Part shown: positions 3,282 to 61,833 of the stretch, piece by piece
How the letters are laid out: each line of letters opens with the position of its first letter
Numbering within the stretch: position 1 is the stretch's first letter
Assembly: GCA_041658205.1 (NCBI GenBank)
Contig: JBBAAO010000002.1
Location: forward strand, 55,310 to 119,309
Origin: Bacteroidota bacterium
GTDB taxonomy: Bacteria; Bacteroidota; Ignavibacteria; UBA10030; UBA8401
Length of the DNA stretch: 64,000 bases
Reading direction: 5' to 3'
The notes under the pieces: model-generated
Databases searched by the model: none
Told to the model about the DNA's origin: nothing
The model's input: only the letters and a program-made list of their open reading frames with translations
Made by a program: the position numbers and the translations under genes

Positions 3282-4517
3282 TTACTTGAGAAGCATGTTC
3301 TCTTTCAGACCCAATATCTTCTTCATATTATCTGCGAGCTGTTCCAAAATGGTTTTATAATGATCCATCGTTCTAAATCGCTCTGCGTAATCTCGCATGG
3401 CCGTAATCATTCCAACATCTTTTCCAGCCCGCTCGCTTAAATAATACTTGTTGTTCATAATCTCGATGTACAACTCTGCAGCCGTTTTTCCCTTAAACAC
3501 ATCTAAAATATTTTCAGATCGGAATAACTCGCAGATAGGAACAAAGATCGTTTTATACCAATCCCGCGTAGCTGCGGCAAGTGTTACATCGTTGCGTAAC
3601 CGTTCGCTCATATACCATTTATGTTCTTCAATATGTTTTAAGAATTGATCGACATACGCAGGATTGAAAATGCTCCCGAGAAATTTATCAATATTGAACG
3701 ACGTCTGTTGTTGAAATATTTTTTTCTTTACTTCAACATTATATAACAATGTATATCGCTCTTGGATGTATTTTTTATCTTCTTCCATTCCAAGATTGTC
3801 GCGAACCACACCGCTGCTCCGCAAATCTTCGTTGATCCAATCCATCGATTCAAAGAAAAAATTCAAATCTGCTTCTCGCATAGATTGTGAAATCTGCGGA
3901 TGGATCTCAATCGTCTCCGCATCCGATAGATATGCAATAAGGACCGTTTGTATACCGACGAACGGTGTTTCTCTCTTTGAAAATTTAATAAGGACGTTGG
4001 CAAGAGATGCGTCGCCCCAATAGACCCCGTTGCTGTGCAGTTGAATGAATAACCGTACAATCGCATCCCAAATTTTCTGCCGATTTTCTTTTCGGAAATT
4101 TCTTGAGTAAAGAAGAGAATCAGGAAGAACTTTATCGACTAAAACGGTAACGGTATGGGAAATGAAATTATCTTCGTATTGAATTCCGACCGGTGTTTCA
4201 ATGGCAATTGATTCCTCTTCCCGCACCACAAATCCCGCCGGGACAAGAGTGTGAATACCGCGCAGCAATAGTTGTTCGTAATGATCGATCTCTTTTTTGG
4301 AGATCTTTTCACTGATTTCTTTAATGCCAAAAGAAAATCTTCCAGTTTTGACAAAGACGACCACGTGACGCGAAATTCCCCGTTTTATATTTAAGATATT
4401 CACGCCGCATTTGTGCCAATCACCAATCGGAACGTTCCATGGTAATTTTAGTAGTTCTTCTTCAAAGATCGGGTCGACGTGAAAACGGATATGGGGGGAG
4501 AGTGTCATGACACTCAA
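3282..4517 (-). CDS. hypothetical protein: kinase-like N-terminal region plus C-terminal domain with internal tandem motif (DUF4032-like)
   Basis: 'VYWGDASLANVLI' resembles the catalytic-loop region of Kdo/RIO-like kinases. The C-terminus has a duplicated ~30-aa motif 'KWYMSERLRNDV...ATRDWY' / 'KYYLSERAGKDV...AMRDYA'. Confidence 0.45.
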   Translation of the reverse strand: MSVMTLSPHIRFHVDPIFEEELLKLPWNVPIGDWHKCGVNILNIKRGISRHVVVFVKTGRFSFGIKEISEKISKKEIDHYEQLLLRGIHTLVPAGFVVREEESIAIETPVGIQYEDNFISHTVTVLVDKVLPDSLLYSRNFRKENRQKIWDAIVRLFIQLHSNGVYWGDASLANVLIKFSKRETPFVGIQTVLIAYLSDAETIEIHPQISQSMREADLNFFFESMDWINEDLRSSGVVRDNLGMEEDKKYIQERYTLLYNVEVKKKIFQQQTSFNIDKFLGSIFNPAYVDQFLKHIEEHKWYMSERLRNDVTLAAATRDWYKTIFVPICELFRSENILDVFKGKTAAELYIEIMNNKYYLSERAGKDVGMITAMRDYAERFRTMDHYKTILEQLADNMKKILGLKENMLLK

Positions 4518-5278: not shown

Positions 5279-6130
5279 TTACAGCGGCTGTAAAATTCCG
5301 GTGTTTAACAGATACAACAAACCGAGACCAACAACAATTCGATAAATAATAAAGAGATATGTTGTATGTGATTTTAAATAATTTAACAAAAATGCGATAG
5401 AGGCATAACCGACAATTCCCGAAACAACGGTAGCGACAACCAAGCTTACAATTCCATCACTTGAAGAAAGCAAAACTTCTCGTTCTTTTATTAATTCTAA
5501 AATTCCGGCCGCTAACACCGAAGGAAGAGAAAGTAAAAATGAAAATCGAGCCGCTGTTTCGCGAGTCATTCCTGTAAACAATCCTCCGGTAATGGTTGTT
5601 CCGGAGCGGGATGAGCCCGGAATAAGGGCGACGGACTGCCAAAATCCAACAACAACGACCTCTTTCCAGGAAAGATCCTCAAGTGTTTTCAACTTTTCGC
5701 CGCGGGCTAGCTTCTTTTTGGTTATCCATTCGGCAATCATCAACACAATCGCCAGCAGAATCAACGAGGCGCTGATAACATAAAGGGATCGGAACGATGT
5801 CTCAATTTGGTGTTTTAAGAGTAAACCAAAAAAAACGATTGGCACCGTTCCTGTTGCAATCATCCAACCGAGCTGTGCGTCGCGATTATATAGTAGTCTA
5901 CCAGACATCAGACCTTTAATGACTGCCGAAGTAATGGTAATAATATCTTTTCGAAAGTAGAATAGAACCGCTACGAGCGTTCCAAACTGAATGACTGCGG
6001 TAAACGCAGCGCCGGGGTCTTCCCATCCAATCAACGCCGGAATAATACGCAAATGTCCCGTGCTGCTGATGGGGAGAAATTCTGTCAATCCTTGAATTAC
6101 GCCGAGTATAACAGCTTGAATAATGTCCAT
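5279..6130 (-). CDS. uppP: undecaprenyl-diphosphate phosphatase
   Basis: 283 aa; UppP/BacA N-terminal signature 'GLTEFLPISSTGHL'. Confidence 0.9.
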   Translation of the reverse strand: MDIIQAVILGVIQGLTEFLPISSTGHLRIIPALIGWEDPGAAFTAVIQFGTLVAVLFYFRKDIITITSAVIKGLMSGRLLYNRDAQLGWMIATGTVPIVFFGLLLKHQIETSFRSLYVISASLILLAIVLMIAEWITKKKLARGEKLKTLEDLSWKEVVVVGFWQSVALIPGSSRSGTTITGGLFTGMTRETAARFSFLLSLPSVLAAGILELIKEREVLLSSSDGIVSLVVATVVSGIVGYASIAFLLNYLKSHTTYLFIIYRIVVGLGLLYLLNTGILQPL

Positions 6131-6331
6131 TGTATGTGTGAGATTAAAAAAAAAGAGGAGTGTTCATCTCCTCTTACTGTACATATTAAGGTACGAAAAA
6201 AATACATTCCTTTCAAACGGAGCATTTTTATAAAAACAGTTGAATTCTTTCAATTTATATTGTACTCTAGCCGAGCATAACAGACGATAGTCCGAAGCTC
6301 TATATTTCTTTCACATATCAAATCAAAAAAA

Positions 6332-29133: not shown

Positions 29134-29168
29134 AAGACCTTCCATGTTTTAAAAACATGGAAGGTCTT
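29134..29168. repeat. near-perfect 17-bp-arm palindrome in the leuC-leuD spacer
   Basis: aagaccttccatgtttt (29134-29150), a, aaaacatggaaggtctt (29152-29168); no T-run follows. Confidence 0.6.
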
Positions 29169-31823: not shown

Positions 31824-33215
31824 ATGCTTACAATGAAATTTGGCGGAACATCGGTCGGCGATGTTCCCAGACTGCAGGAAGTTGTTTCAATCGTCAAACA
31901 ATTTTTGAAAGACCAGCCGGTGGTTGTTGCTTCGGCGATGGGAGGACTGACCAATGTACTGCTCGATACAGCACAAAAAGCGGTCGAACGGAAGTCCGGT
32001 GAAGTGAACAATGCCATTGCAGCAATTCGAGAAAGGCACTTACAAATTGCAAACGCCATGATTCATGATTATCCCCGGCGTGCTGCGCTGATCAAAAATC
32101 AACAGGATTCGATCAATGAACTAGCTAATTTCTATCATGGCGTGAGTCTTTTGCGTGAACTTTCGCCCCGTTCACTTGATGCGATTGCATCATTCGGAGA
32201 AATCCTATCATGTATGCAGATTGCTGCTATTTTTGAGGAAAACGGCATCAAATCCCAATTTATTGATGCGCGAACAATTATTCAAACCGACGATAATTTT
32301 GGAGAAGCTTCTGTCGATTTCTCCGTTTCGAATAAAAAAATCAACGAAACAATTTCACCACTTGTATCCAAAGGGATTGTTCCTGTTGTGACCGGATTTA
32401 TTTCGTCTACAGAGGATGGAATAACAACAACAATTGGTCGAAGTGGTTCGGATTATACCGGCTCAATTGTTGGTTCTGCCATTAACAGTAAAGAAATCTG
32501 GATCTGGACGGATGTTGACGGTGTTATGACTGCCGATCCTCGATTTGTCAAAGGGGCACAAGTGCTCTCGGAAATTTCCTACCGCGAAGCAGCGGAGATG
32601 AGTTATTTTGGTGCAAAGGTTATTCATCCAAAGACAATGGTTCCGGCAATCGAGAAAAAGATTCCGATTCGGATTAAGAATACATTTAATCCGGAACACC
32701 AAGGAACGCTTATTTCAGCAAAACCGAATCACGGAGGAACATCAGCAAAAACGGTGACATCCATCGACAATCTTGCCATTATTGCAATTGAAGGAAATGG
32801 AATGATCGGCGTGCCGGGTGTTTCTGCAAGAATTTTTTCAGCATTAGCACGCGCTCAAGTAAACGTCATGATGATATCGCAGGCGTCATCGGAACATAAT
32901 GTCTGTATTCTTGTTCCCAAAAAAGATAGTGCGAACGGTGTAAAAGTGCTGCGGGATGAATTCAGTATTGATATTGCAAAGAAAATTATTGATGCTGTTA
33001 CTGTAAAAGAGACCGTTTCCATTGTTGCGGTGGTTGGAGAAGGAATGATTGGCACGAAAGGAATTGCCGGGAGAACATTTGATGCAGTTGCAAAAGCAGA
33101 TGTGAATATCATTGCGATTGCACAAGGCTCGTCCGAATTGAATATCTCGTTCGTTGTTGATCAAAAAGATGCCAAAAAATCGGTGCAGGCTGTGCACGAT
33201 TCGTTTTATCAATAG
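31824..33215 (+). CDS. aspartate kinase (monofunctional, tandem ACT domains)
   Basis: 'MKFGGTSVGD' kinase N-terminus; two C-terminal ACT regions; alternative start at 31833. Confidence 0.9.
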   Translation: MLTMKFGGTSVGDVPRLQEVVSIVKQFLKDQPVVVASAMGGLTNVLLDTAQKAVERKSGEVNNAIAAIRERHLQIANAMIHDYPRRAALIKNQQDSINELANFYHGVSLLRELSPRSLDAIASFGEILSCMQIAAIFEENGIKSQFIDARTIIQTDDNFGEASVDFSVSNKKINETISPLVSKGIVPVVTGFISSTEDGITTTIGRSGSDYTGSIVGSAINSKEIWIWTDVDGVMTADPRFVKGAQVLSEISYREAAEMSYFGAKVIHPKTMVPAIEKKIPIRIKNTFNPEHQGTLISAKPNHGGTSAKTVTSIDNLAIIAIEGNGMIGVPGVSARIFSALARAQVNVMMISQASSEHNVCILVPKKDSANGVKVLRDEFSIDIAKKIIDAVTVKETVSIVAVVGEGMIGTKGIAGRTFDAVAKADVNIIAIAQGSSELNISFVVDQKDAKKSVQAVHDSFYQ

Positions 33216-33311
33216 ATTGTTGCTTGCCGCTATTCCGGATAGATGGTAGTGTTGTAACATCAGTAAAAAAGAATCAGAATGTATTTTCAGACCGACAATC
33301 AAAAATAATAC

Positions 33312-33548
33312 ATGCAAAAATATCAAAGCATCAGCTGTTCGTATTATGATCAACTGGAAGCATATGCGACAAAACGCACACACTGTTCCATCATCTATAG
33401 TGATGATTCAGAAAAAATTATCGATGGTGTTATTGTGGATGTCTATGCAAAAGAAGGTGCGGAATATTTAAAACTTGACAACGGAACCGTGATTCGATTG
33501 GATTATCTTCTATCGATCAACGGTATTCCTGTCAGCAATATTTGCTAA
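33312..33548 (+). CDS. rof: Rof/YaeO-like Rho-binding antiterminator family protein
   Basis: 78 aa; 'YQSISCSYYDQLEAYA...EGAEYLKLDNGTVIRLDYLLSI' aligns along its length to E. coli Rof ('YQPINCDDYDNLELAC...KNVEYLVV...ELRLDKITSF'). Confidence 0.7.
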   Translation: MQKYQSISCSYYDQLEAYATKRTHCSIIYSDDSEKIIDGVIVDVYAKEGAEYLKLDNGTVIRLDYLLSINGIPVSNIC

Positions 33549-33549
33549 T

Positions 33550-34821
33550 ATGAAATCGATCTTAAAAAGTATAACAACCGGAACCGAATATCCACTTAAC
33601 GAAGTCCGATTCACATCGGACAACGGTGAATTGCTGGATGTGATTCATGATTTTGATGCAATTCGGAAACAATATTCAATTTCCCGCGAATATTTTTCTA
33701 CTAAACGATCCACGATCAACGGTCAGCCGAGCGGCGGCGTTTGGCATTTTAAAGAATTAGTCTTACCGACAATCGCGGAATCGGAGATTGTTTCCAAACA
33801 GGAAGGAAATACACGGCTATACCGCAGCAAAAAAATCTCCTCATGGCTTGGATTGAATTCAGAAAAATTCTTTTTAAAGCATGAAGGAGAAAACCCCACC
33901 GGTTCGTTTAAAGATCGTGGAATGACTGTTGCTATAACACAAGCAAAAGCGCTGCATCAAAAAGCGGTGACGTGTGCATCCACAGGAAATACGTCAGCAT
34001 CACTGGCTGCTTATGCTTCAGAAGCGGAATTGACGGGAATTGTGCTCATTCCCAAGGGGAATGTGGCTGTTGGAAAAATTTCGCAGGCGCTTGCATACGG
34101 AACAAAAACACTTGTTGTCGATGGAGACTTTGATGATTGCATGCGGATGATCCGCGAGGCGCAGGAAAAACTTTCCGCGTATCCACTCAATTCCATCAAT
34201 CCATTCAGACTTGAAGGGCAAAAGACAATCATGTGGGAAATTTTGCTTCAACTGAACTGGCAAATTCCCGATTGGATTGTTTTTCCCGGAGGGAATCTTG
34301 GGAATACCAGCGCATTCGGAAAAGCGCTGCATGAAGCAAAAGAACTTGGTCTGATCGATAGGCTTCCCAGGTTCGCGGTGATTCAAGCAGAAGGGGCAAG
34401 TCCGTTTTACAAAGCGTATAAAAATAATTTTTCCGGATTGAAAACGGAAAAGGCAGATACTATTGCTACTGCAATTAAAATCGGTGATCCAGTAAACTAC
34501 TCCAAAGCCGTGCGTGCATTACGGTGGACAAACGGAATTGTGGAAAGCGTCACAGATGAAGAAATTCTGGAAGCAAAAGCGAATGTTGATGCTGCGGGTA
34601 TCGGCGCAGAACCGGCTTCGTGTGCAACGGTGGCAGGAATAAAAAAATTGATTGCCAGCGGCGAGATAAAAACAAGCGAAACCGTCGTCGGAATACTGAC
34701 GGGAAACATATTGAAAGATCCGCAGGTGATTGTTGATTACCATTTTAACCGAAAAACGGCTCTCGCAAATCCGCCAAACGAAATAAAAGCAGACATTAGT
34801 GATTTAAGAAAATATCTTTAA
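33550..34821 (+). CDS. thrC: threonine synthase
   Basis: 423 aa PLP enzyme; lysine motif 'GSFKDRGMT'; starts 2 nt after the rof-like stop. Confidence 0.9.
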   Translation: MKSILKSITTGTEYPLNEVRFTSDNGELLDVIHDFDAIRKQYSISREYFSTKRSTINGQPSGGVWHFKELVLPTIAESEIVSKQEGNTRLYRSKKISSWLGLNSEKFFLKHEGENPTGSFKDRGMTVAITQAKALHQKAVTCASTGNTSASLAAYASEAELTGIVLIPKGNVAVGKISQALAYGTKTLVVDGDFDDCMRMIREAQEKLSAYPLNSINPFRLEGQKTIMWEILLQLNWQIPDWIVFPGGNLGNTSAFGKALHEAKELGLIDRLPRFAVIQAEGASPFYKAYKNNFSGLKTEKADTIATAIKIGDPVNYSKAVRALRWTNGIVESVTDEEILEAKANVDAAGIGAEPASCATVAGIKKLIASGEIKTSETVVGILTGNILKDPQVIVDYHFNRKTALANPPNEIKADISDLRKYL

Positions 34822-34835
34822 TACACCGCAAAGAC
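34822..34835. repeat. left 14-bp terminal inverted repeat of the GxxExxY cassette
   Basis: tacaccgcaaagac is the exact reverse complement of 35256-35269. Confidence 0.7.
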
Positions 34836-34853
34836 ACAGAGACGCAAAGAGAA

Positions 34854-35240
34854 ATGACTGTCGAAAATCTCAATCGCATTTCGAAGACAATTCTTGATGC
34901 GTGTATTACTGTTCATCGGGAAATGGGGCCTGGTTTATTAGAATCAATTTATGAGCTATGTCTGTTGGATGAGCTTCAACAAAGAGGATTAGTAGTTGCA
35001 AGCCAAGTTTCAATTCCTTTGAGGTTTAAGGGAAAAGAGCTATCCAAAGATTTTCGTATCGATATTCTTGTTGAAAACGAAATAGTTTTAGAAATTAAAG
35101 CGGTTGACATTTTGCTGCCAGTACATGAAGCACAAATAATCTCATACTTAAAGTTAACAGATAAGAGATTAGGCTTTTTGATCAATTTTAATGTTCCGTT
35201 ATTAAAAAATGGTTTTAAACGATTCGTTCACAATTTTTAA
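34854..35240 (+). CDS. GxxExxY family protein (PD-(D/E)XK-like fold)
   Basis: 128 aa; 'GPGLLESIYE' GxxExxY motif plus conserved 'RIDILVENEIVLEIK'; visibly AT-richer than neighbours. Confidence 0.8.
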   Translation: MTVENLNRISKTILDACITVHREMGPGLLESIYELCLLDELQQRGLVVASQVSIPLRFKGKELSKDFRIDILVENEIVLEIKAVDILLPVHEAQIISYLKLTDKRLGFLINFNVPLLKNGFKRFVHNF

Positions 35241-35255
35241 TTTTAGCGCCTTGGC

Positions 35256-35269
35256 GTCTTTGCGGTGTA
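35256..35269. repeat. right 14-bp terminal inverted repeat of the GxxExxY cassette
   Basis: gtctttgcggtgta; ends 3 nt before the thrB ATG. Confidence 0.7.
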
Positions 35270-35272
35270 AAA

Positions 35273-36163
35273 ATGCAAATAAAAATTCCCTGTTCCACCT
35301 CTAATCTCGGTCCCGGATTTGATACGCTTGGTTTGGCGTTGAATCGGTTTCTCTATCTTTCCGCAGAACAATCAAACGGATTGACAATCATTGTTGAAGG
35401 AAACGGCAAGGAACATATTGCTACCGACGCGACGAATCTTGTTTATGCAGCAATGACTTCAACAGTCCAAAAAGTTGGAAGAACAATACCAGCGATACAC
35501 CTTCATATTAAAAATGAAATTCCGTCATACGGCGGACTTGGAGGGAGTGGTGCAGCGATTGCCGGCGGTGTTTTTCTTGCGAATGAATTGTTGAAAATGA
35601 AATTATCAAAAGATGATATGTTGAATATCGCTGTGGAAATTGAAGGACATCCTGATAATGTTTCCGCTGCGATATTTGGCGGATTAACAGTAAACAGTTT
35701 CGATGCGGAAAGAAAAGTTCATTGCCGGAGTATTAATATAAAAAAACCACTTTCCGTTATTACCTGCTCTCCTCATTTTCAGGTACAGACGAAAGAAGCA
35801 CGGAAGATTCTTCCACAGCAAGTTCCCCTTAAAGATGCTGTCACCAATATCGAAAATGCAGCATCCCTTGTTGCTGCAATGATGAGTGGAGATTTTGAAG
35901 CATTACGCTATGTGACTACTGATCGTCTCCATGAACAATACCGTGCCACACTTATTCCCGGATATGCCGATGTTCAGAAAGCAGCACTCGATGCCGGTGC
36001 ATTATCCTTCAACATTAGCGGCGCAGGACCAACAGTCTTTGCGTTTGCCGTTGCACACGAACAACAGATTGCCGCCGCCATGAAACAGGCGTTCGAACGG
36101 AACGGACAACAGGCAACATCAGAAGTGATATCCGTAGAAAATTCCGGTGCGACTCTTCTCTAA
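35273..36163 (+). CDS. thrB: homoserine kinase
   Basis: GHMP kinase motif 'SNLGPGFDTLGLAL'. Confidence 0.9.
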   Translation: MQIKIPCSTSNLGPGFDTLGLALNRFLYLSAEQSNGLTIIVEGNGKEHIATDATNLVYAAMTSTVQKVGRTIPAIHLHIKNEIPSYGGLGGSGAAIAGGVFLANELLKMKLSKDDMLNIAVEIEGHPDNVSAAIFGGLTVNSFDAERKVHCRSINIKKPLSVITCSPHFQVQTKEARKILPQQVPLKDAVTNIENAASLVAAMMSGDFEALRYVTTDRLHEQYRATLIPGYADVQKAALDAGALSFNISGAGPTVFAFAVAHEQQIAAAMKQAFERNGQQATSEVISVENSGATLL

Positions 36164-36560
36164 ACTGCTTATCTTTTGTATCACAGCTGTCCAAAATAAA
36201 TCGTAACTGAATACAAAATTGGCTGTAGTAACTCAAATTGGGTAAATATATTTTGATAACAAGTAGTAAACCCTCTTTGCTGTATTGTAGAGATCGTATA
36301 AAAGTGTGTGGGTGCGAAATTTAGGAGGACTGAGTGAATGGGAAAGCGATGAATGACGGGACTTTTGATGGCGCGATTCGCGCCATCAACGGGCAAGAGC
36401 GAACGGGATTCATCGCGCGCGTTAAATTTCGCAAGGAGTTCTTTTGCTTCTTTTCTTGCTCCGTCAAGAAAAGAAGAGAGTGAGGAATTTTGTTGTTTTT
36501 ATCAATGTATTTTGGACAAGTGTGATTTTGTATCATCCTTATTAACATTCTGGGAAACCC

Positions 36561-37211
36561 ATGAGCGAATTTCCACAAAGCGATCGTAATAAAGTACGCC
36601 GGCTTCCTCAGCGGGGCCATTATGACAAAGACACAGTCTATGCCATTGTCGACGAAGCGCTGATTTGTCACGCAGGCTTTGTTGTTGACGGACAACCGTT
36701 TGTTATTCCGACGATTCATGTTCGGATTGGTGATACAATCTACCTGCATGGCGCTGTTGCGAACAGGATGTTATCACATCTTAAAGCAGGAAATGATGTG
36801 TGCCTGACAATGACACTGATTGACGGAATTGTGTTTGCGCGATCGGTCTTTCATCATAGTATGAATTATCGTTCGGCAGTGTTGTTTGGGAAGGGAAGAG
36901 TGATTGAGGGATATGATGAAAAGTGGAAAGTCTTTGAAGCATTAACAGAGCATATTGCTAAGGGACGGTGGAATGACGCGCGAAAACCAACAGAACAAGA
37001 GACAAACATCACCACCATTATTGCGATCGATATTGAATCTGCCTCTGCAAAAATACGGATCGGTCCCGCTAAAGATGATGAGGAAGATTATGCTTTACCG
37101 ATGTGGGCCGGGGTAATGCCGGTGAGTATGAAATTTGGTGAACCAAAAAGAGATGAACGACTGCCGGAAACAGTTTCTCTACCGGCATATCTAAAGGAAT
37201 ACCGGCGTTAG
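36561..37211 (+). CDS. pyridoxamine 5'-phosphate oxidase-like FMN-binding split-barrel protein
   Basis: 216 aa; 'LICHAGFVVDGQPFVIPTIHVRIGDTIYLHGAV' typical of the PNPOx/NimA-like family. Confidence 0.65.
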   Translation: MSEFPQSDRNKVRRLPQRGHYDKDTVYAIVDEALICHAGFVVDGQPFVIPTIHVRIGDTIYLHGAVANRMLSHLKAGNDVCLTMTLIDGIVFARSVFHHSMNYRSAVLFGKGRVIEGYDEKWKVFEALTEHIAKGRWNDARKPTEQETNITTIIAIDIESASAKIRIGPAKDDEEDYALPMWAGVMPVSMKFGEPKRDERLPETVSLPAYLKEYRR

Positions 37212-37217
37212 CAGCAA

Positions 37218-38672
37218 TTATTGTTTGATCAGTTCGAATGTTTGCGGTGTTCTTTTGATCCAATCCATAAATGATCGGTCTTTTTCCGGCATATCTTCGG
37301 GGACGATATATCCCTTCAGTTGAGTTGATCCCGCAAGATTTCCATTTTTATTGATCTTTGCCGTTGAAACAATGACGCCGGAACCCATATTTTTATATCC
37401 GAAGATTAACTCTCCATTCTTCGATACAGAAAACACCTCTTGTTCTATTCTCTTTCCCCGCGCCCAAGGCGGATCGACGCGAAACAGTGTTGGCACACTA
37501 TTGTTTATTGAAATCTCTATTGTTATTGGCTCTTCTTTCGTTTGGAATTGAATTTCTCCTGAAGATGGCTGAACTCTACTCTGACTCCCTTTCCAGATAC
37601 CAATATATTGAAGCACTTCATCGGCAGAGGGTTTCCGCAATCCCAAATAATAATCGGCAAGAGAACTATCATGCAATGCGATCGTTGCAGCATTGTTTTT
37701 CAGAATGTCGATCTCATGCATGGTACCGTAGATCGTTTCTGCATATTGTGTCAATTCAAGTACTTCTTTTTTGCGATGCTCCATGAGATTTCTGGACGCA
37801 CTTCCCAACAATATACGAAGTGGGATCTGGTAATGATATCCATAGCTTAACGATATTGTTTCGTAATGTTTTTTCAGTTGCAACAATGAGAGATCCTTTT
37901 TTACGGGAGCAAAATCTTGAAAAAGGAATTTTAATCCATCGTACATCCCTTTGCCGGGAATGGATTCATGTGTTTCACCAGACAATATCACTTGCAGTGC
38001 GTTATTTCCTTTTGGCATGAACCGACTCCAATCAGTTCCCCAGCCGAACGCATTCTCAATAGAAACGTACTTTGTTTTGCTGTTCTCTTTGAGTAAGCGT
38101 GCAATATTATTTTTGAGCGCATCTGTTTTTGGGTCGATGTTGATTGGAACATCAAAGGAAAGAATCCACGGAAAGATCAGCGGCTTCCGTGCAAGAAGAT
38201 ACGAAACAAACAGACCTCCCTGAGAATGTCCGATGATGATCGTATGACCATTCAACGGAAAATGTTTCGTTAAAAAAGGTAGCAATTCGTCGGAGACAAA
38301 TTGTGAAAAATTCTTTTCACCAAGTCCATCCAAGGCACTTGGCATAGGCATATCACGATTCCTGTCGGTGTTGGGAATCCCGACGATCACCGCTTCCGGC
38401 ATTTGGGGAATTTCAGAGGAATAACACATAAAGCGAGATGTGCTCACCAACAATTCAAACAGCGTTTCAGCATCGAAAACAATAATCAGCGGATATCGGG
38501 TGTTTTGGTTCACCGTTTGCGCCGCGGGTGAGTAAAGATAGATATTCCGTTTTTCTTGTAACACGTTTGAATAGAGTAATCGTGTCGTACCAATCGTTAC
38601 CTGATTGCTTGATTGAGCAAAACATGCCGTTGTTAATAATCCGGTAATAAAAAGAAGTTGGAGTTTGTTCAT
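37218..38672 (-). CDS. secreted alpha/beta-hydrolase esterase with extra C-terminal domain
   Basis: Signal peptide 'LLFITGLLTTACFAQ'; nucleophile elbow 'IIGHSQGGLF'. Confidence 0.65.
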   Translation of the reverse strand: MNKLQLLFITGLLTTACFAQSSNQVTIGTTRLLYSNVLQEKRNIYLYSPAAQTVNQNTRYPLIIVFDAETLFELLVSTSRFMCYSSEIPQMPEAVIVGIPNTDRNRDMPMPSALDGLGEKNFSQFVSDELLPFLTKHFPLNGHTIIIGHSQGGLFVSYLLARKPLIFPWILSFDVPINIDPKTDALKNNIARLLKENSKTKYVSIENAFGWGTDWSRFMPKGNNALQVILSGETHESIPGKGMYDGLKFLFQDFAPVKKDLSLLQLKKHYETISLSYGYHYQIPLRILLGSASRNLMEHRKKEVLELTQYAETIYGTMHEIDILKNNAATIALHDSSLADYYLGLRKPSADEVLQYIGIWKGSQSRVQPSSGEIQFQTKEEPITIEISINNSVPTLFRVDPPWARGKRIEQEVFSVSKNGELIFGYKNMGSGVIVSTAKINKNGNLAGSTQLKGYIVPEDMPEKDRSFMDWIKRTPQTFELIKQ

Positions 38673-41364: not shown

Positions 41365-41457
41365 GGTATATAAGTATGTGAGTAGTTGAGTAACCGAACG
41401 TACGAGGGAATAATATCTCAATTACTCAACTACTTTCGGTATTTTTTCCAAGGAGAT

Positions 41458-61520: not shown

Positions 61521-61833
61521 GTCGGCACGGACGGCAGTCCGTGCCAAAGCCCTTTTTGAAAGTTTGTCGGTGCGGACGCCAGTCCGCACCAAAGCATTTT
61601 TTTTGCAAATAATAACTTATGAGAACGATCTTCCGTTAAAAAACTCGGCGAATAAGTGCGACCGTTCCGAAAAGATCTATTATTTTTGTTTCTTTGAAGT
61701 AAACTGTCGGCACGGATGCCAGTCCGCGCCCAAGACTTTTTTTGAAAGTTTGTCGGTGCGGACACAAGTCCTCACCAAAGCATTTTTTTTTGAAGTAAGC
61801 TGTGGCATGGACGCTAGTCCGTGCAAAAGATTT
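61521..61833 (+). repeat. REP-like array: five direct copies of a GC-rich palindromic unit each followed by a T-run, in two alternating sequence variants
   Basis: Units at ~61521, 61565, 61705, 61750 and 61800 share the consensus tgtcgg[ct][ag]cgga[ct]gc[ct]agtccg[ct][ag]ccaaagc + T-run. Stems are ggcacggac/gtccgtgcc and ggtgcggac/gtccgcacc. Confidence 0.7.

Follow-up and report, generated by a model that had tools for sequence, protein, structure and literature searches.

The 448-bp segment that separates thrC from thrB at positions 34,822-35,269 is best read, with a probability that we put at roughly 55%, as a member of a widespread type of compact hairpin cassette, in which the start and stop codons of a gene abut inverted arrays of a conserved octamer. 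Held with the same confidence, the cassette would resemble both the intervening sequences (IVS) of rRNA and the REPIN/RAYT systems, and would carry a promoterless GxxExxY gene that is old and has been kept vertically. It lies in a 64-kb window (the whole stretch of DNA that was analysed) and is made of an arm, a GxxExxY ORF and a second arm, placed between two host genes:

33,550-34,821, + strand: thrC, threonine synthase, upstream host gene (TIGR00260, 282 bits)
34,822-34,850, + strand: left arm, TAC-ACCGC-AAAGA-CACAGAGA-CGCAAAGA (sequence, repeat search, octamer-array scan)
34,854-35,240, + strand: GxxExxY gene, 128 aa (Pfam and NCBIfam matches, invariant columns)
35,241-35,269, + strand: right arm, TTTTAGCG-CCTTGGCG-TCTTTGCG-GTGTA (sequence, repeat search, array scan)
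35,273-36,163, + strand: thrB, homoserine kinase, downstream host gene (TIGR00191, 274 bits)

A Bacteroidota MAG (799,774-nt contig) encodes a protein with 100% identity to the thrB product.

Anatomy of the cassette and its protein

The original prediction had described a cassette bounded by perfect 14-bp inverted repeats, and these were readily found: TACACCGCAAAGAC at 34,822-34,835 and its exact reverse complement GTCTTTGCGGTGTA at 35,256-35,269. They are the only perfect copies of the repeat within the 64-kb window, and we calculate that chance would yield ~5e-6 perfect inverted matches of 14 nt between two flanks of ~50 nt. The right repeat does end 3 nt (AAA) before the thrB ATG at 35,273, as claimed. 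The left one had been placed 1 nt after the thrC stop and needs correcting, since the stop codon TAA occupies 34,819-34,821 and the distance is 0 nt.

The perfect 14 nt are only the outer part of functional arms of 29 nt each; a repeat search extended the inverted repeat to 40-nt arms with 73% complementarity. Each arm consists of ACCGC, at the outer end, and three tandem octamers (CGC-N-R-AG-R). In the left arm the three units that follow ACCGC are of the type C[G/A]C-N-R-AG-R, and the right arm is the reverse complement of three octamers plus ACCGC. Packing is tight: the left arm follows the thrC stop codon without a gap, only 3 nt separate it from the cassette ATG, and the right arm comes immediately after the cassette stop codon. 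The GC content of the cassette (35.5%; ORF, 33.3%) is below that of thrC (43.6%) and thrB (43.8%), confirming that the insert is more AT-rich than its neighbours. Neither a second cassette copy nor a solo arm or hairpin of the octamer motif was found within the 64-kb window.

The only ORF between the arms encodes a protein matching PF13366 PDDEXK_3 (E 1.8e-40, 138.4 bits, cut-off 22) and TIGR04256 GxxExxY (E 1.4e-41, 141.5 bits, cut-off 35), the latter with residues 9-125 aligned on profile positions 2-116 of 116. No other Pfam or NCBIfam family was matched. Residues G27-L-L-E30-S-I-Y33, D70, E80 and K82 are invariant in 45 homologues. Judged from these residues, the GxxExxY motif and the PD-(D/E)XK catalytic set (helix E, D, E-x-K) are intact, and the product is a putative nuclease. 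Its structure model was poor (pLDDT 65), fold searches gave weak restriction-enzyme matches only, and no solved structure related to it by sequence was found. The survey of Steczkiewicz 2012 gives the function of the family as unknown. A defence or phage origin of the gene was considered and rejected, as PADLOC and PHROG gave no match and no relatives of the protein were found in IMG/VR contigs or GenBank phages.

Arms shared across the family and specific to the cargo

The arm motif was present within 140 nt of 84 of the 85 homologous genes examined (Bacteroidota, Ignavibacteriota), whereas a shuffled control gave 5 arms in 200 kb. Among those loci, 41 have a clean left arm-gene-right arm arrangement and ~28 have complete hairpins abutting the gene. 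Since 84/85 homologous loci share the motif, the inverted repeats are a property of the GxxExxY family and not of the thr operon. What recurs throughout the family is an array of three octamers, not a private terminal repeat of one copy, and the repeat is thus tied to other GxxExxY genes, a point on which the original prediction could have failed. Even homologues as remote as 41-45% identity, from Bacteroides finegoldii, Bernardetia and Sphingomonas, have kept arm variants. Carriers available in culture include Draconibacterium orientale DSM 25947 (L016), Flavobacterium succinicans LMG 10402 (L053), Arcicella aurantiaca DSM 22214 (L039), Bacteroides finegoldii (L130) and Sphingomonas parapaucimobilis (L132). 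One locus labelled 'Cloacimonadota' (L078) was not counted as a separate phylum; the label is doubtful because its flanks are near-identical to those of the Bacteroidales loci L050 and L052.

Cassettes were found between conserved housekeeping genes, including thrC-thrB, asd-ask, aroC-SDF, fabD-fabG and radA. In 52/68 loci both neighbours read in the direction of the cassette gene, and the arms themselves have a polarity. In relatives, solo hairpins lacking a gene were also detected (84 in 446 kb around homologous genes); these are ~55-70 nt long, with 26-nt inverted arms, and stand between co-transcribed genes.

The repeat unit differs by cargo family. The octamer CGCNRAGR accompanies GxxExxY genes, and a heptamer, AGGCANN, forms arrays that flank four-helix-bundle genes (PF05635) at five independent sites; 9-mers occur in some lineages. 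Of 80 GxxExxY loci, 71 have CGCNRAG arrays and none has an AGGCANN array. The two homologue searches, with GxxExxY and four-helix-bundle proteins, each returned at least ~8,000 scored matches. Because the four-helix-bundle cargo is not a nuclease, the idea that the cargo is the mobilising enzyme cannot hold identically for both families. CAC-type arms accompany one protein subclade (L014, L025, L049), and co-evolution of arm variant and protein clade was considered on this basis. It was set aside because the association is not independent evidence, the site being orthologous in L025 and L049 at least.

In the literature searched, GxxExxY, PF13366 or TIGR04256 was nowhere linked to flanking repeats, and the arm sequences were absent too. 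The TAACTGA heptamer repeats, which are direct repeats upstream of start codons (PMC4679880), are a different phenomenon.

Insertion, inheritance and selection at thrC-thrB

Comparing the junction in relatives, with an eye to empty sites, had been suggested as a check, and was done. In L085 the thrC-thrB junction is empty and without any hairpin. L084 retains both arms and, of the ORF, ~17 nt at the start and ~40 nt at the end, an internal-deletion intermediate, and L090 has a solo hairpin at the junction. In L088 and L089 the junction holds a PF05635 gene (the 23S-rRNA-IVS-type four-helix-bundle family) with its own heptamer arms. Relatives with an empty junction, a decayed cassette or another occupant show that the cassette was inserted as DNA into the thrC-thrB spacer, as the original prediction had it. 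Orthologous copies of the gene were found to keep the repeats.

At the thr site, pairwise identity of the cassette protein follows that of thrB (r = 0.95), and dN/dS of the protein between orthologous copies is 0.04-0.27. The 45-nt flanks with the arms are 73-86% identical, with four-fold sites saturated at 29-48%. Purifying selection acts on the protein and also on the arms, which are conserved as sequence, and the cassette is old and vertically inherited in this lineage. Identical proteins occupy one genomic context each, across 24 and 15 contigs, and no recent transposition, in the form of identical proteins in different contexts, was found among these contigs. Nothing points to recent mobility, the proteins being single-locus and the thr-site copy co-diverging with thrB. 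The two deep thr-site clades are 66-70% identical to each other, which is the background level for arbitrary pairs of cassettes, so that a single ancient insertion and repeated insertions are indistinguishable on this measure. The outer ends of the cassettes are conserved (TTAA-CCGC on one side; GCGG-TGAA, GCGG-TAAA or GCGG-TTAA on the other). The palindromic TTAA in the target-site flanks could be either a duplication or an extension of the repeat, the empty L085 junction being too diverged to align.

Predicted RNA stem and alternative explanations

A long-range RNA stem looping the gene out of the thr mRNA had been proposed, and is predicted both by folding and by duplex energy, with rRNA IVS as a close precedent established by experiment (PMC4990558). 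The minimum-free-energy fold of 34,812-35,285 pairs one arm (34,822-34,850) with the other (35,241-35,269; z = -2.56), and the left-right arm duplex has a predicted energy of -32.3 kcal/mol. In the predicted fold of the thr transcript, the arms form a stem of ~25 bp that loops out the gene. Pairing is not private to a copy. Mean duplex energies are -33.0 kcal/mol for cognate arms, -30.6 +/- 7.0 for non-cognate arms and -13.8 for shuffled arms, and left and right arms taken from any copies still pair at about -31 to -33 kcal/mol. At variable arm positions, cognate partners match at 141/261, versus 131 +/- 6 with partners permuted. Since left and right arms do not covary, it is the motif that is conserved rather than a private pairing. 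Arm mismatches comprise 66 sense and 89 antisense G.U-compatible transitions and 131 transversions; comparison of G.U-compatible with A.C mismatch counts, solo hairpins included, gave no sense-strand bias.

The stem does not look like an intrinsic terminator or a thr-operon attenuator. The right arm is followed by A's, with no T-run 3' of the stem, no promoter-like or terminator-like site was found on the + strand of the cassette, and the arms occur in many unrelated operons. Explaining the repeats as a terminator of the thr operon, a case against the original prediction, therefore finds no support. Rfam searches of the whole window returned no family at gathering score and no rRNA. A sub-threshold CRISPR-DR54 match inside the ORF is due to chance.

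These data bear on the possibility of a purely RNA-level element of the IVS type, in which RNase III cuts the stem and the mRNA of the gene is excised, the arms being kept for the sequence or shape of the stem, with no recognition by a protein and with an insertion event unrelated to the arms. The strength of the predicted stem, an anatomy and GC deficit like those of the Coxiella IVS with its RNase III-cut stem, the 23S-IVS-family gene at the same junction in L088 and L089, and the way in which the arms abut the thrC stop codon and the thrB start codon all speak for it. The need for a stem alone, however, predicts covariation and a sequence that drifts. What is observed is a motif fixed across phyla, arms that do not covary, no sense-strand G.U excess, and left and right variable positions of solo hairpins that match less often than by chance (217 vs 282 +/- 11). 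A generic RNase III stem also fails to explain why each cargo family has its own arm motif, and at the ~28 loci with complete hairpins the gene lies between hairpins, not inside one. We regard this explanation as unlikely, though likelier than the other alternatives.

The original prediction had also raised a MITE-like origin, with a non-autonomous element mobilised in trans. On this view the gene between the terminal inverted repeats would be a passenger, and the transposase, encoded elsewhere, would be unrelated to it. The copy in the window looks instead like a gene-carrying form; the MITE-like forms are the solo hairpins without a gene in relatives. Inverted terminal arms (14 nt perfect within 29 nt), conserved outer ends and insertions scattered among many different operons fit such an element. 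No transposase family co-occurs at the loci examined, however, the passenger family is constant for a given arm motif, and long purifying selection on protein and arms is unexpected for a passenger. With no definable target-site duplication in the flanks, and no near-identical copies at different sites in the 64-kb window or among the identical proteins of the 24 and 15 contigs, a MITE appears improbable. We give little credence to a free-standing homing-endonuclease-like gene, which would spread from genome to genome by cutting cassette-free alleles and being copied in via its housekeeping flanks, with the arms secondary. The intact PD-(D/E)XK catalytic set, the position between conserved housekeeping genes and the varying presence at one junction are what it would predict; yet it leaves the conserved arms, the solo hairpins and the non-nuclease four-helix-bundle cargo unexplained, and the thr-site cassette co-diverges with its flanks rather than showing transfer. 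Bacteroidota invertons are built as inverted repeats around a segment of a few hundred bp, and a hairpin inside an amino-acid biosynthesis operon could be regulatory. An invertible segment, or a thr-operon regulatory hairpin or terminator enclosing a gene by chance, is nevertheless very improbable: the same arms recur in dozens of unrelated operons, the junction of L085 lacks a hairpin, the arms are polar and the genes mostly co-oriented with both neighbours, no recombinase was called among the genes adjoining cassettes at the loci listed, and the stem is not terminator-like.

The hairpin-cassette reading has its own difficulties. A 128-aa nuclease alone cannot carry out transposition, arms of 26-29 nt with ~80% identity are short for homology-directed homing, and no near-identical copies were seen at different sites. 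Its proposed mechanism works at two levels. In the RNA, the stem may act like the terminal stem of a 23S-rRNA IVS, bringing the end of thrC close to the start of thrB, and by analogy would probably be cut by RNase III; alternatively, ribosomes that terminate at the stop codon of thrC, which is in contact with the arm, may open the stem. Whether cut or opened, the stem would render the insertion harmless inside an essential operon. As to the DNA, the arm motif is conserved across phyla and cargo-specific, so that the encoded protein most likely recognises it as sequence. This putative recogniser of the arms might maintain or spread cognate hairpins as RAYT does REPINs, with the gene-less solo hairpins arising as internal-deletion derivatives. 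Spread would be slow, and nothing indicates current activity of the thr copy.

Relation to known elements and implications

The closest likeness is to 23S rRNA IVS with an S23p/four-helix-bundle ORF, as in Coxiella and Leptospira. The Coxiella IVS is 428 nt long, with an ORF in the loop and a 28-bp terminal stem that is cut by RNase III, and has a GC content of 36% in a genome of 42.5% (PMC4990558). Its counterparts here are a length of 448 nt (IVS, 428-444 nt), a single ORF of ~120-130 aa filling the loop, complementary termini giving a stem of ~25-28 bp and a similar GC deficit (35.5 vs 43.6%). Both were acquired as an insertion and then vertically kept, and an IVS-family PF05635 gene occupies thrC-thrB in L088 and L089. 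In contrast to an IVS, which sits in an rRNA helix, the cassette stands between protein-coding genes of an mRNA operon, and by location it is therefore not an IVS. Its ORF is a PD-(D/E)XK GxxExxY gene and its arms are three tandem octamers conserved family-wide; and whereas RNase III cleavage has been shown for the Coxiella IVS, the stem of the cassette is predicted only.

REP sequences and REPIN-RAYT systems (Nunvar 2010; PMC2817692) likewise comprise a gene flanked by inverted short repeats, with gene-less intergenic hairpins and tandem clusters elsewhere, as in relatives. In both, the gene is single-locus, vertical and under purifying selection, and each protein family has a repeat motif of its own. 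RAYT, however, is an HUH Y1 (IS200/IS605-type) transposase and not a 128-aa PD-(D/E)XK protein, and REPs are GTAG/CGTC-tagged palindromes, not tandem 8-mers. Further differences are that the GxxExxY family is described (TIGR04256) as multi-copy per genome, and that the 64-kb window lacks solo hairpins of the motif.

Correia/NEMIS are Neisseria elements with 26-bp terminal inverted repeats that are cut by RNase III within mRNAs. The solo hairpins resemble them in length, in their 26-nt inverted arms and in lying between co-transcribed genes. Correia elements lack an ORF and have a TA target duplication, whereas here a gene-carrying form exists and no duplication is definable. With integron cassettes the element shares a promoterless, tightly packed single ORF, reliance on outside transcription and an imperfect palindromic element per gene. 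It is not, though, an integron gene cassette, which has a single attC at the 3' end, an intI/attI platform and other cassettes: attC is conserved in structure, whereas two inverted arms conserved in sequence bracket this ORF. No array beside an integrase was seen, the cassettes standing singly inside housekeeping operons, here with thrC and thrB as neighbours.

A broader proposal is possible, and we make it tentatively. GxxExxY and four-helix-bundle ('23S rRNA IVS protein') genes may be the protein parts of one unrecognised class of hairpin cassettes, in which each protein would recognise its own tandem repeat in inverted arrays and maintain or spread the hairpins. A hairpin that insulates itself at the RNA level would permit life inside essential operons and rRNA.

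PF13366 and PF05635 rank with the most abundant small proteins that lack a known function in Bacteroidota and related phyla, and the literature searched offers no explanation for such genes standing singly between housekeeping genes. The present analysis supplies a defined anatomy (start and stop codons abutting inverted arrays of a conserved 7-9-nt unit, one unit per family), in which the arms provide annotation with a simple marker for cassette boundaries and decayed copies. It links the cassettes to the experimentally studied rRNA IVS and, by analogy, to REPIN-RAYT, and turns a vague 'selfish gene?' label into testable statements on binding or cutting of the arms by the protein, on an RNase III cut and on solo hairpins tracking the clade. 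If true, the broader proposal would explain why two very large protein families without a known function are scattered and multi-copy, as well as where ORF-bearing rRNA intervening sequences come from.

The thrC-thrB cassette and its expression context

The cassette lies between thrC and thrB, with the following features:

34819-34821, + strand: thrC stop codon (sequence)
34822-34835, + strand: left perfect 14-nt inverted repeat, TACACCGCAAAGAC (sequence)
34854-35240, + strand: full-length GxxExxY/PDDEXK_3 ORF, 128 aa (protein family match)
35256-35269: right perfect 14-nt repeat, exact reverse complement of TACACCGCAAAGAC; next come AAA and, at 35273, the ATG of thrB

The sequence bore out the perfect 14-bp inverted repeats of the original prediction, the right one ending 3 nt before the thrB ATG; the left repeat, placed 1 nt past the thrC stop, in fact directly abuts it (0 nt). 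As had also been claimed, a GxxExxY gene, here matched at full length, is the sole ORF between the repeats, thrC and thrB are the flanking genes, and the gene-bearing segment is the more AT-rich (35.5% GC for the cassette vs 43.6-43.8% in thrC/thrB). By our own calculation, two short flanks would share a perfect inverted match of 14 nt by chance ~5e-6 times. A search of the 64-kb window returned no further perfect copies of the TACACCGCAAAGAC pair, no second GxxExxY copy and no solo arm of the CGCNRAG motif. The same cassette is present in a 99.6%-identical strain.

Neither a sigma-70-like site nor a Bacteroidota-type -7 motif (TAnnTTTG) was detected on the + strand of 32301-38108, and the cassette contains no terminator-like site on that strand. 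In homologous loci, both neighbors are co-directional with the cassette gene in 52 of 68 scorable cases, and usually only a few nt separate the upstream stop codon from the left arm. Since the gene has no promoter site of its own and its neighbors are co-oriented, it is most likely read from the host operon transcript. With the thrC stop in contact with the left arm and only 3 nt between the right arm and the thrB start, any stem formed by the arms would have to be cut or melted for thrB translation; termination at the thrC stop would bring ribosomes onto the outer 14 nt, the perfectly paired part. Upstream, between thrC and the gene for aspartate kinase, there is a 78-aa ORF (33312-33548) that ends 1 nt ahead of the thrC start; L102, the near-identical strain, has it called as well. 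Pfam gave no match for it, and its similarity to Rof, a Rho-binding antiterminator, was weak and sub-threshold (E 1.8e-4, 21.7 bits vs a cut-off of 117).

Arm arrays across the gene family

The 14-bp repeats are a genuine perfect inverted pair, but the true unit is a longer octamer-array arm common to the gene family. The cassette consists exactly of left arm, 3 nt, ORF and right arm. Each arm is 29 nt long, the left reading TAC-ACCGC-AAAGA-CACAGAGA-CGCAAAGA and the right, as reverse complement, TAC-ACCGC-AAAGA-CGCCAAGG-CGCTAAAA; each therefore comprises an outer ACCGC and three tandem octamers C[G/A]C-N-R-AG-R.

Homologues were sampled at 80 loci (63-83% protein identity) from several classes of Bacteroidota and from Ignavibacteriota/Chlorobiota MAGs, picked by protein similarity, many being MAG contigs with uncertain labels. 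The arm scoring scan covered these 80 loci, five more thr-site loci and the window. At least one arm was found within 140 nt of the gene in 84/85 loci; the shuffled control gave 5 arms per 200 kb. A clean left arm-gene-right arm layout was seen in 41 loci, and in ~28 the gene was abutted by one or two complete hairpins, each with a loop of 3-30 nt between its left and right arms. The outer ends are polar: the left is mostly TTAA|CCGC, the right GCGG|TGAA or TAAA followed by A's. We also detected 84 gene-less solo hairpins in the 446 kb surrounding homologous genes, some in tandem (up to ten, with a ~75-nt period). In a Marinilabiliaceae chromosome (L045; OY760941.1), runs of 4 to 10 tandem gene-less CGCNRAG hairpins of period ~75 nt lie beside a GxxExxY gene (2524-2871, 3471-4150 and 5870-6218), resembling clustered REPs.

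Among more distant homologues, drawn from annotated records, other units occur: 9-mers CRCRGAGGA in Bacteroides finegoldii (45% identity; radA|gene|FAD protein), CACAGAGA in Bernardetia (42%), and GC-rich octamers CGCGAAGR in the alphaproteobacterium Sphingomonas parapaucimobilis (L132, 1165-1625; 41%; fabD|gene|fabG), whose annotated 142-aa ORF runs through the right arm and stops 2 nt ahead of fabG. A still more distant copy, from Treponema, shows a simple inverted repeat of 11 nt, and flanking repeats are direct, not inverted, in Fusobacteria bacterium ZRK30 (L134; 22 nt) and Prevotella nigrescens (L135; ~65 nt). In Gemmatirosa kalamazoonensis (L137), a distant homologue is followed closely downstream by a solo hairpin built of three 9-mers in tandem, repeating the architecture with a different unit in a further phylum:

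L137, ~770-850: GACGCGGAT-GCCGCGGAT-CACGCGGAT ... complement

A different cargo carries different arms. At thrC|thrB in two relatives (L088, 1931-2500; L089, 1-521), a 123-aa ORF matches PF05635, '23S rRNA-intervening sequence protein' (E 6e-39); it is intact in L089, has an in-frame TGA in L088, and is flanked by inverted heptamer arrays (AGGCANN upstream, its complement on the other side). The L088 copy sits within the remnants of a resident GxxExxY cassette, of which both shortened arms and ~30 nt of the 5' coding region are left. Five further PF05635-family genes, three between histidine kinase and response regulator, one between CheR and CheB, and one after RlmL facing an opposite-strand MFS gene, are all flanked by AGGCANN-type arrays. 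With a strict pattern, CGCNRAG arrays occur in 71/80 GxxExxY loci and AGGCANN arrays in 0/80; AGGCANN arrays occur in 5/8 four-helix-bundle (PF05635) loci, with degenerate versions in two more, and CGCNRAG arrays only in the nested case, L088. The cargo-arm pairing is thus specific.

The window holds other repeats. A solo hairpin at 41366-41435, with 8-nt periodic arms of another sequence family (GTATATAA-GTATGTGA-GTAGTTGA-GTAA) and a 13-nt perfect inverted repeat (AGTAGTTGAGTAA / TTACTCAACTACT; 28-nt loop), fills the spacer of two minus-strand genes (rhodanese-domain protein and sulphur-transport-family protein). It may represent a related element of this type that lacks a gene. A 22-nt self-palindromic sequence occurs twice, 186 nt apart (61569-61590 and 61755-61776; GGTGCGGACGCCAGTCCGCACC / GGTGCGGACACAAGTCCTCACC), and a perfect 17-bp palindrome with a 1-nt center lies at 29134-29168 (AAGACCTTCCATGTTTT A AAAACATGGAAGGTCTT).

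Inheritance at the thrC|thrB junction

Among ~25 thrC-thrB junctions, from a metagenome scan with thrB and from earlier loci, 14 carry the GxxExxY cassette. One has a 65-nt spacer and no hairpin (L085); another is an internal-deletion intermediate retaining both arms and the first ~17 and last ~40 nt of the ORF (L084); a third has a solo hairpin of the cassette's own arm motif (L090); and in a fourth the arms enclose ~200 nt of unrelated sequence (L095). Five have a solo hairpin of a different octamer, a third repeat family of TTACAAGA type:

L081, 421-507
L083, 430-516
L086, 2427-2500
L094 and L098, 2431-2500

We found no cargo gene associated with arms of this family. Half of a TTACAAGA-type hairpin lies directly downstream of the GxxExxY cassette of another locus (L001, 3429-3473). 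A thrB homologue of 364 aa (P0082) combines PF00288, PF13366 and PF08544 in one called protein, and is probably a decayed GxxExxY cassette joined to thrB by the gene caller.

Across eight complete thr-site loci, pairwise cassette protein identity correlates with the corresponding values for thrB (r = 0.95) and thrC (r = 0.93). Orthologous cassette copies differ with dN/dS of 0.04-0.27, and the 45-nt arm-holding flanks are still 73-86% identical at distances that saturate four-fold degenerate sites (29-48% identity), indicating that protein and arms are both under purifying selection. Two deep thr-site clades share 66-70% identity, the background between any two cassettes, so that one ancient event and recurrent insertion at thrC|thrB fit equally. 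Two exactly conserved proteins, found on 24 and 15 contigs, occur in one context each (aroC|gene|SDF transporter and thrC|gene|thrB, respectively) and give no sign of recent transposition.

Candidate explanations

The original prediction had offered a long-range RNA stem as one explanation. The minimum-free-energy fold of 34812-35285 does include an arm stem (14 bp followed by 1+3+3+4 bp, interrupted by single mismatches; z = -2.56), with a predicted duplex energy of -32.3 kcal/mol, but the arms are conserved as a motif, with no left/right covariation. In 29 loci with both arms adjoining the ORF, the core (ACCGC, CGC, AG) is near-invariant and octamer positions 4, 5 and 8 vary; at these, left arms match their own right arms at 141/261 positions, vs 131 +/- 6 with permuted partners. 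Own-arm matches in solo hairpins are fewer than with permuted partners (217 vs 282 +/- 11), CGC[A/G]RAG being favored in left arms and the complement of CGCTRAG in right arms. Mismatches are mainly transversions, the sense strand shows no excess of G.U-compatible transitions (66 vs 89), and predicted duplex energies do not differ between cognate (-33.0 kcal/mol) and non-cognate arms (-30.6 +/- 7.0) but lie well away from those of shuffled arms (-13.8). These results point to conservation of a sequence motif, arranged as inverted arrays, rather than of a private stem; since that motif is shared, a stable stem can nonetheless form. A purely RNA-level stem therefore appears unlikely, given also the fixed arm motif and the specificity of arms for cargo.

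A MITE mobilized in trans by a separately encoded transposase is improbable: multiple near-identical copies, which define MITE-like hairpins, were not found for the cassette in the 64 kb of its genome that the analysis covered. We regard a homing-endonuclease-like gene with secondary arms as likewise improbable, and an inverton or host regulatory hairpin as the most doubtful of all.

Of the relatives, the IVS of Coxiella burnetii is the best studied (PMC4990558). This element of 428 nt, located in helix 45 of 23S rRNA, has an S23p (PF05635) ORF in its loop, a 28-bp terminal stem that RNase III cuts, and 36% GC vs 42.5% for the genome; it was acquired horizontally and then retained vertically. 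Its size, layout and GC deficit are those of the window's cassette. The cassette is akin to IVSs, REPIN/RAYT systems and MITE-like hairpins but belongs to none, since it lacks a defining feature of each: the rRNA location of the first, the HUH transposase of the second and the copy number of the third. Neither Rfam nor the searchable literature describes the arms or their link to GxxExxY genes, and the GxxExxY protein drew no hit in PADLOC or PHROGs; a 2012 survey of the PD-(D/E)XK superfamily listed PDDEXK_3 among families of unknown function and recorded multiple transfers for it.

Judged from sequence, it is well supported that the window's cassette represents a family-wide hairpin cassette, an old, vertically kept DNA insertion with a functional protein and functional arms. 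To the whole reading, description together with mechanism, we assign a probability of about 0.55. In the mechanism we favor, an IVS-like RNA stem would make the insert harmless inside the operon, and the encoded protein would recognize the arms by sequence, thereby tying gene-carrying cassettes to gene-less hairpins, much as RAYTs are linked to REPINs.
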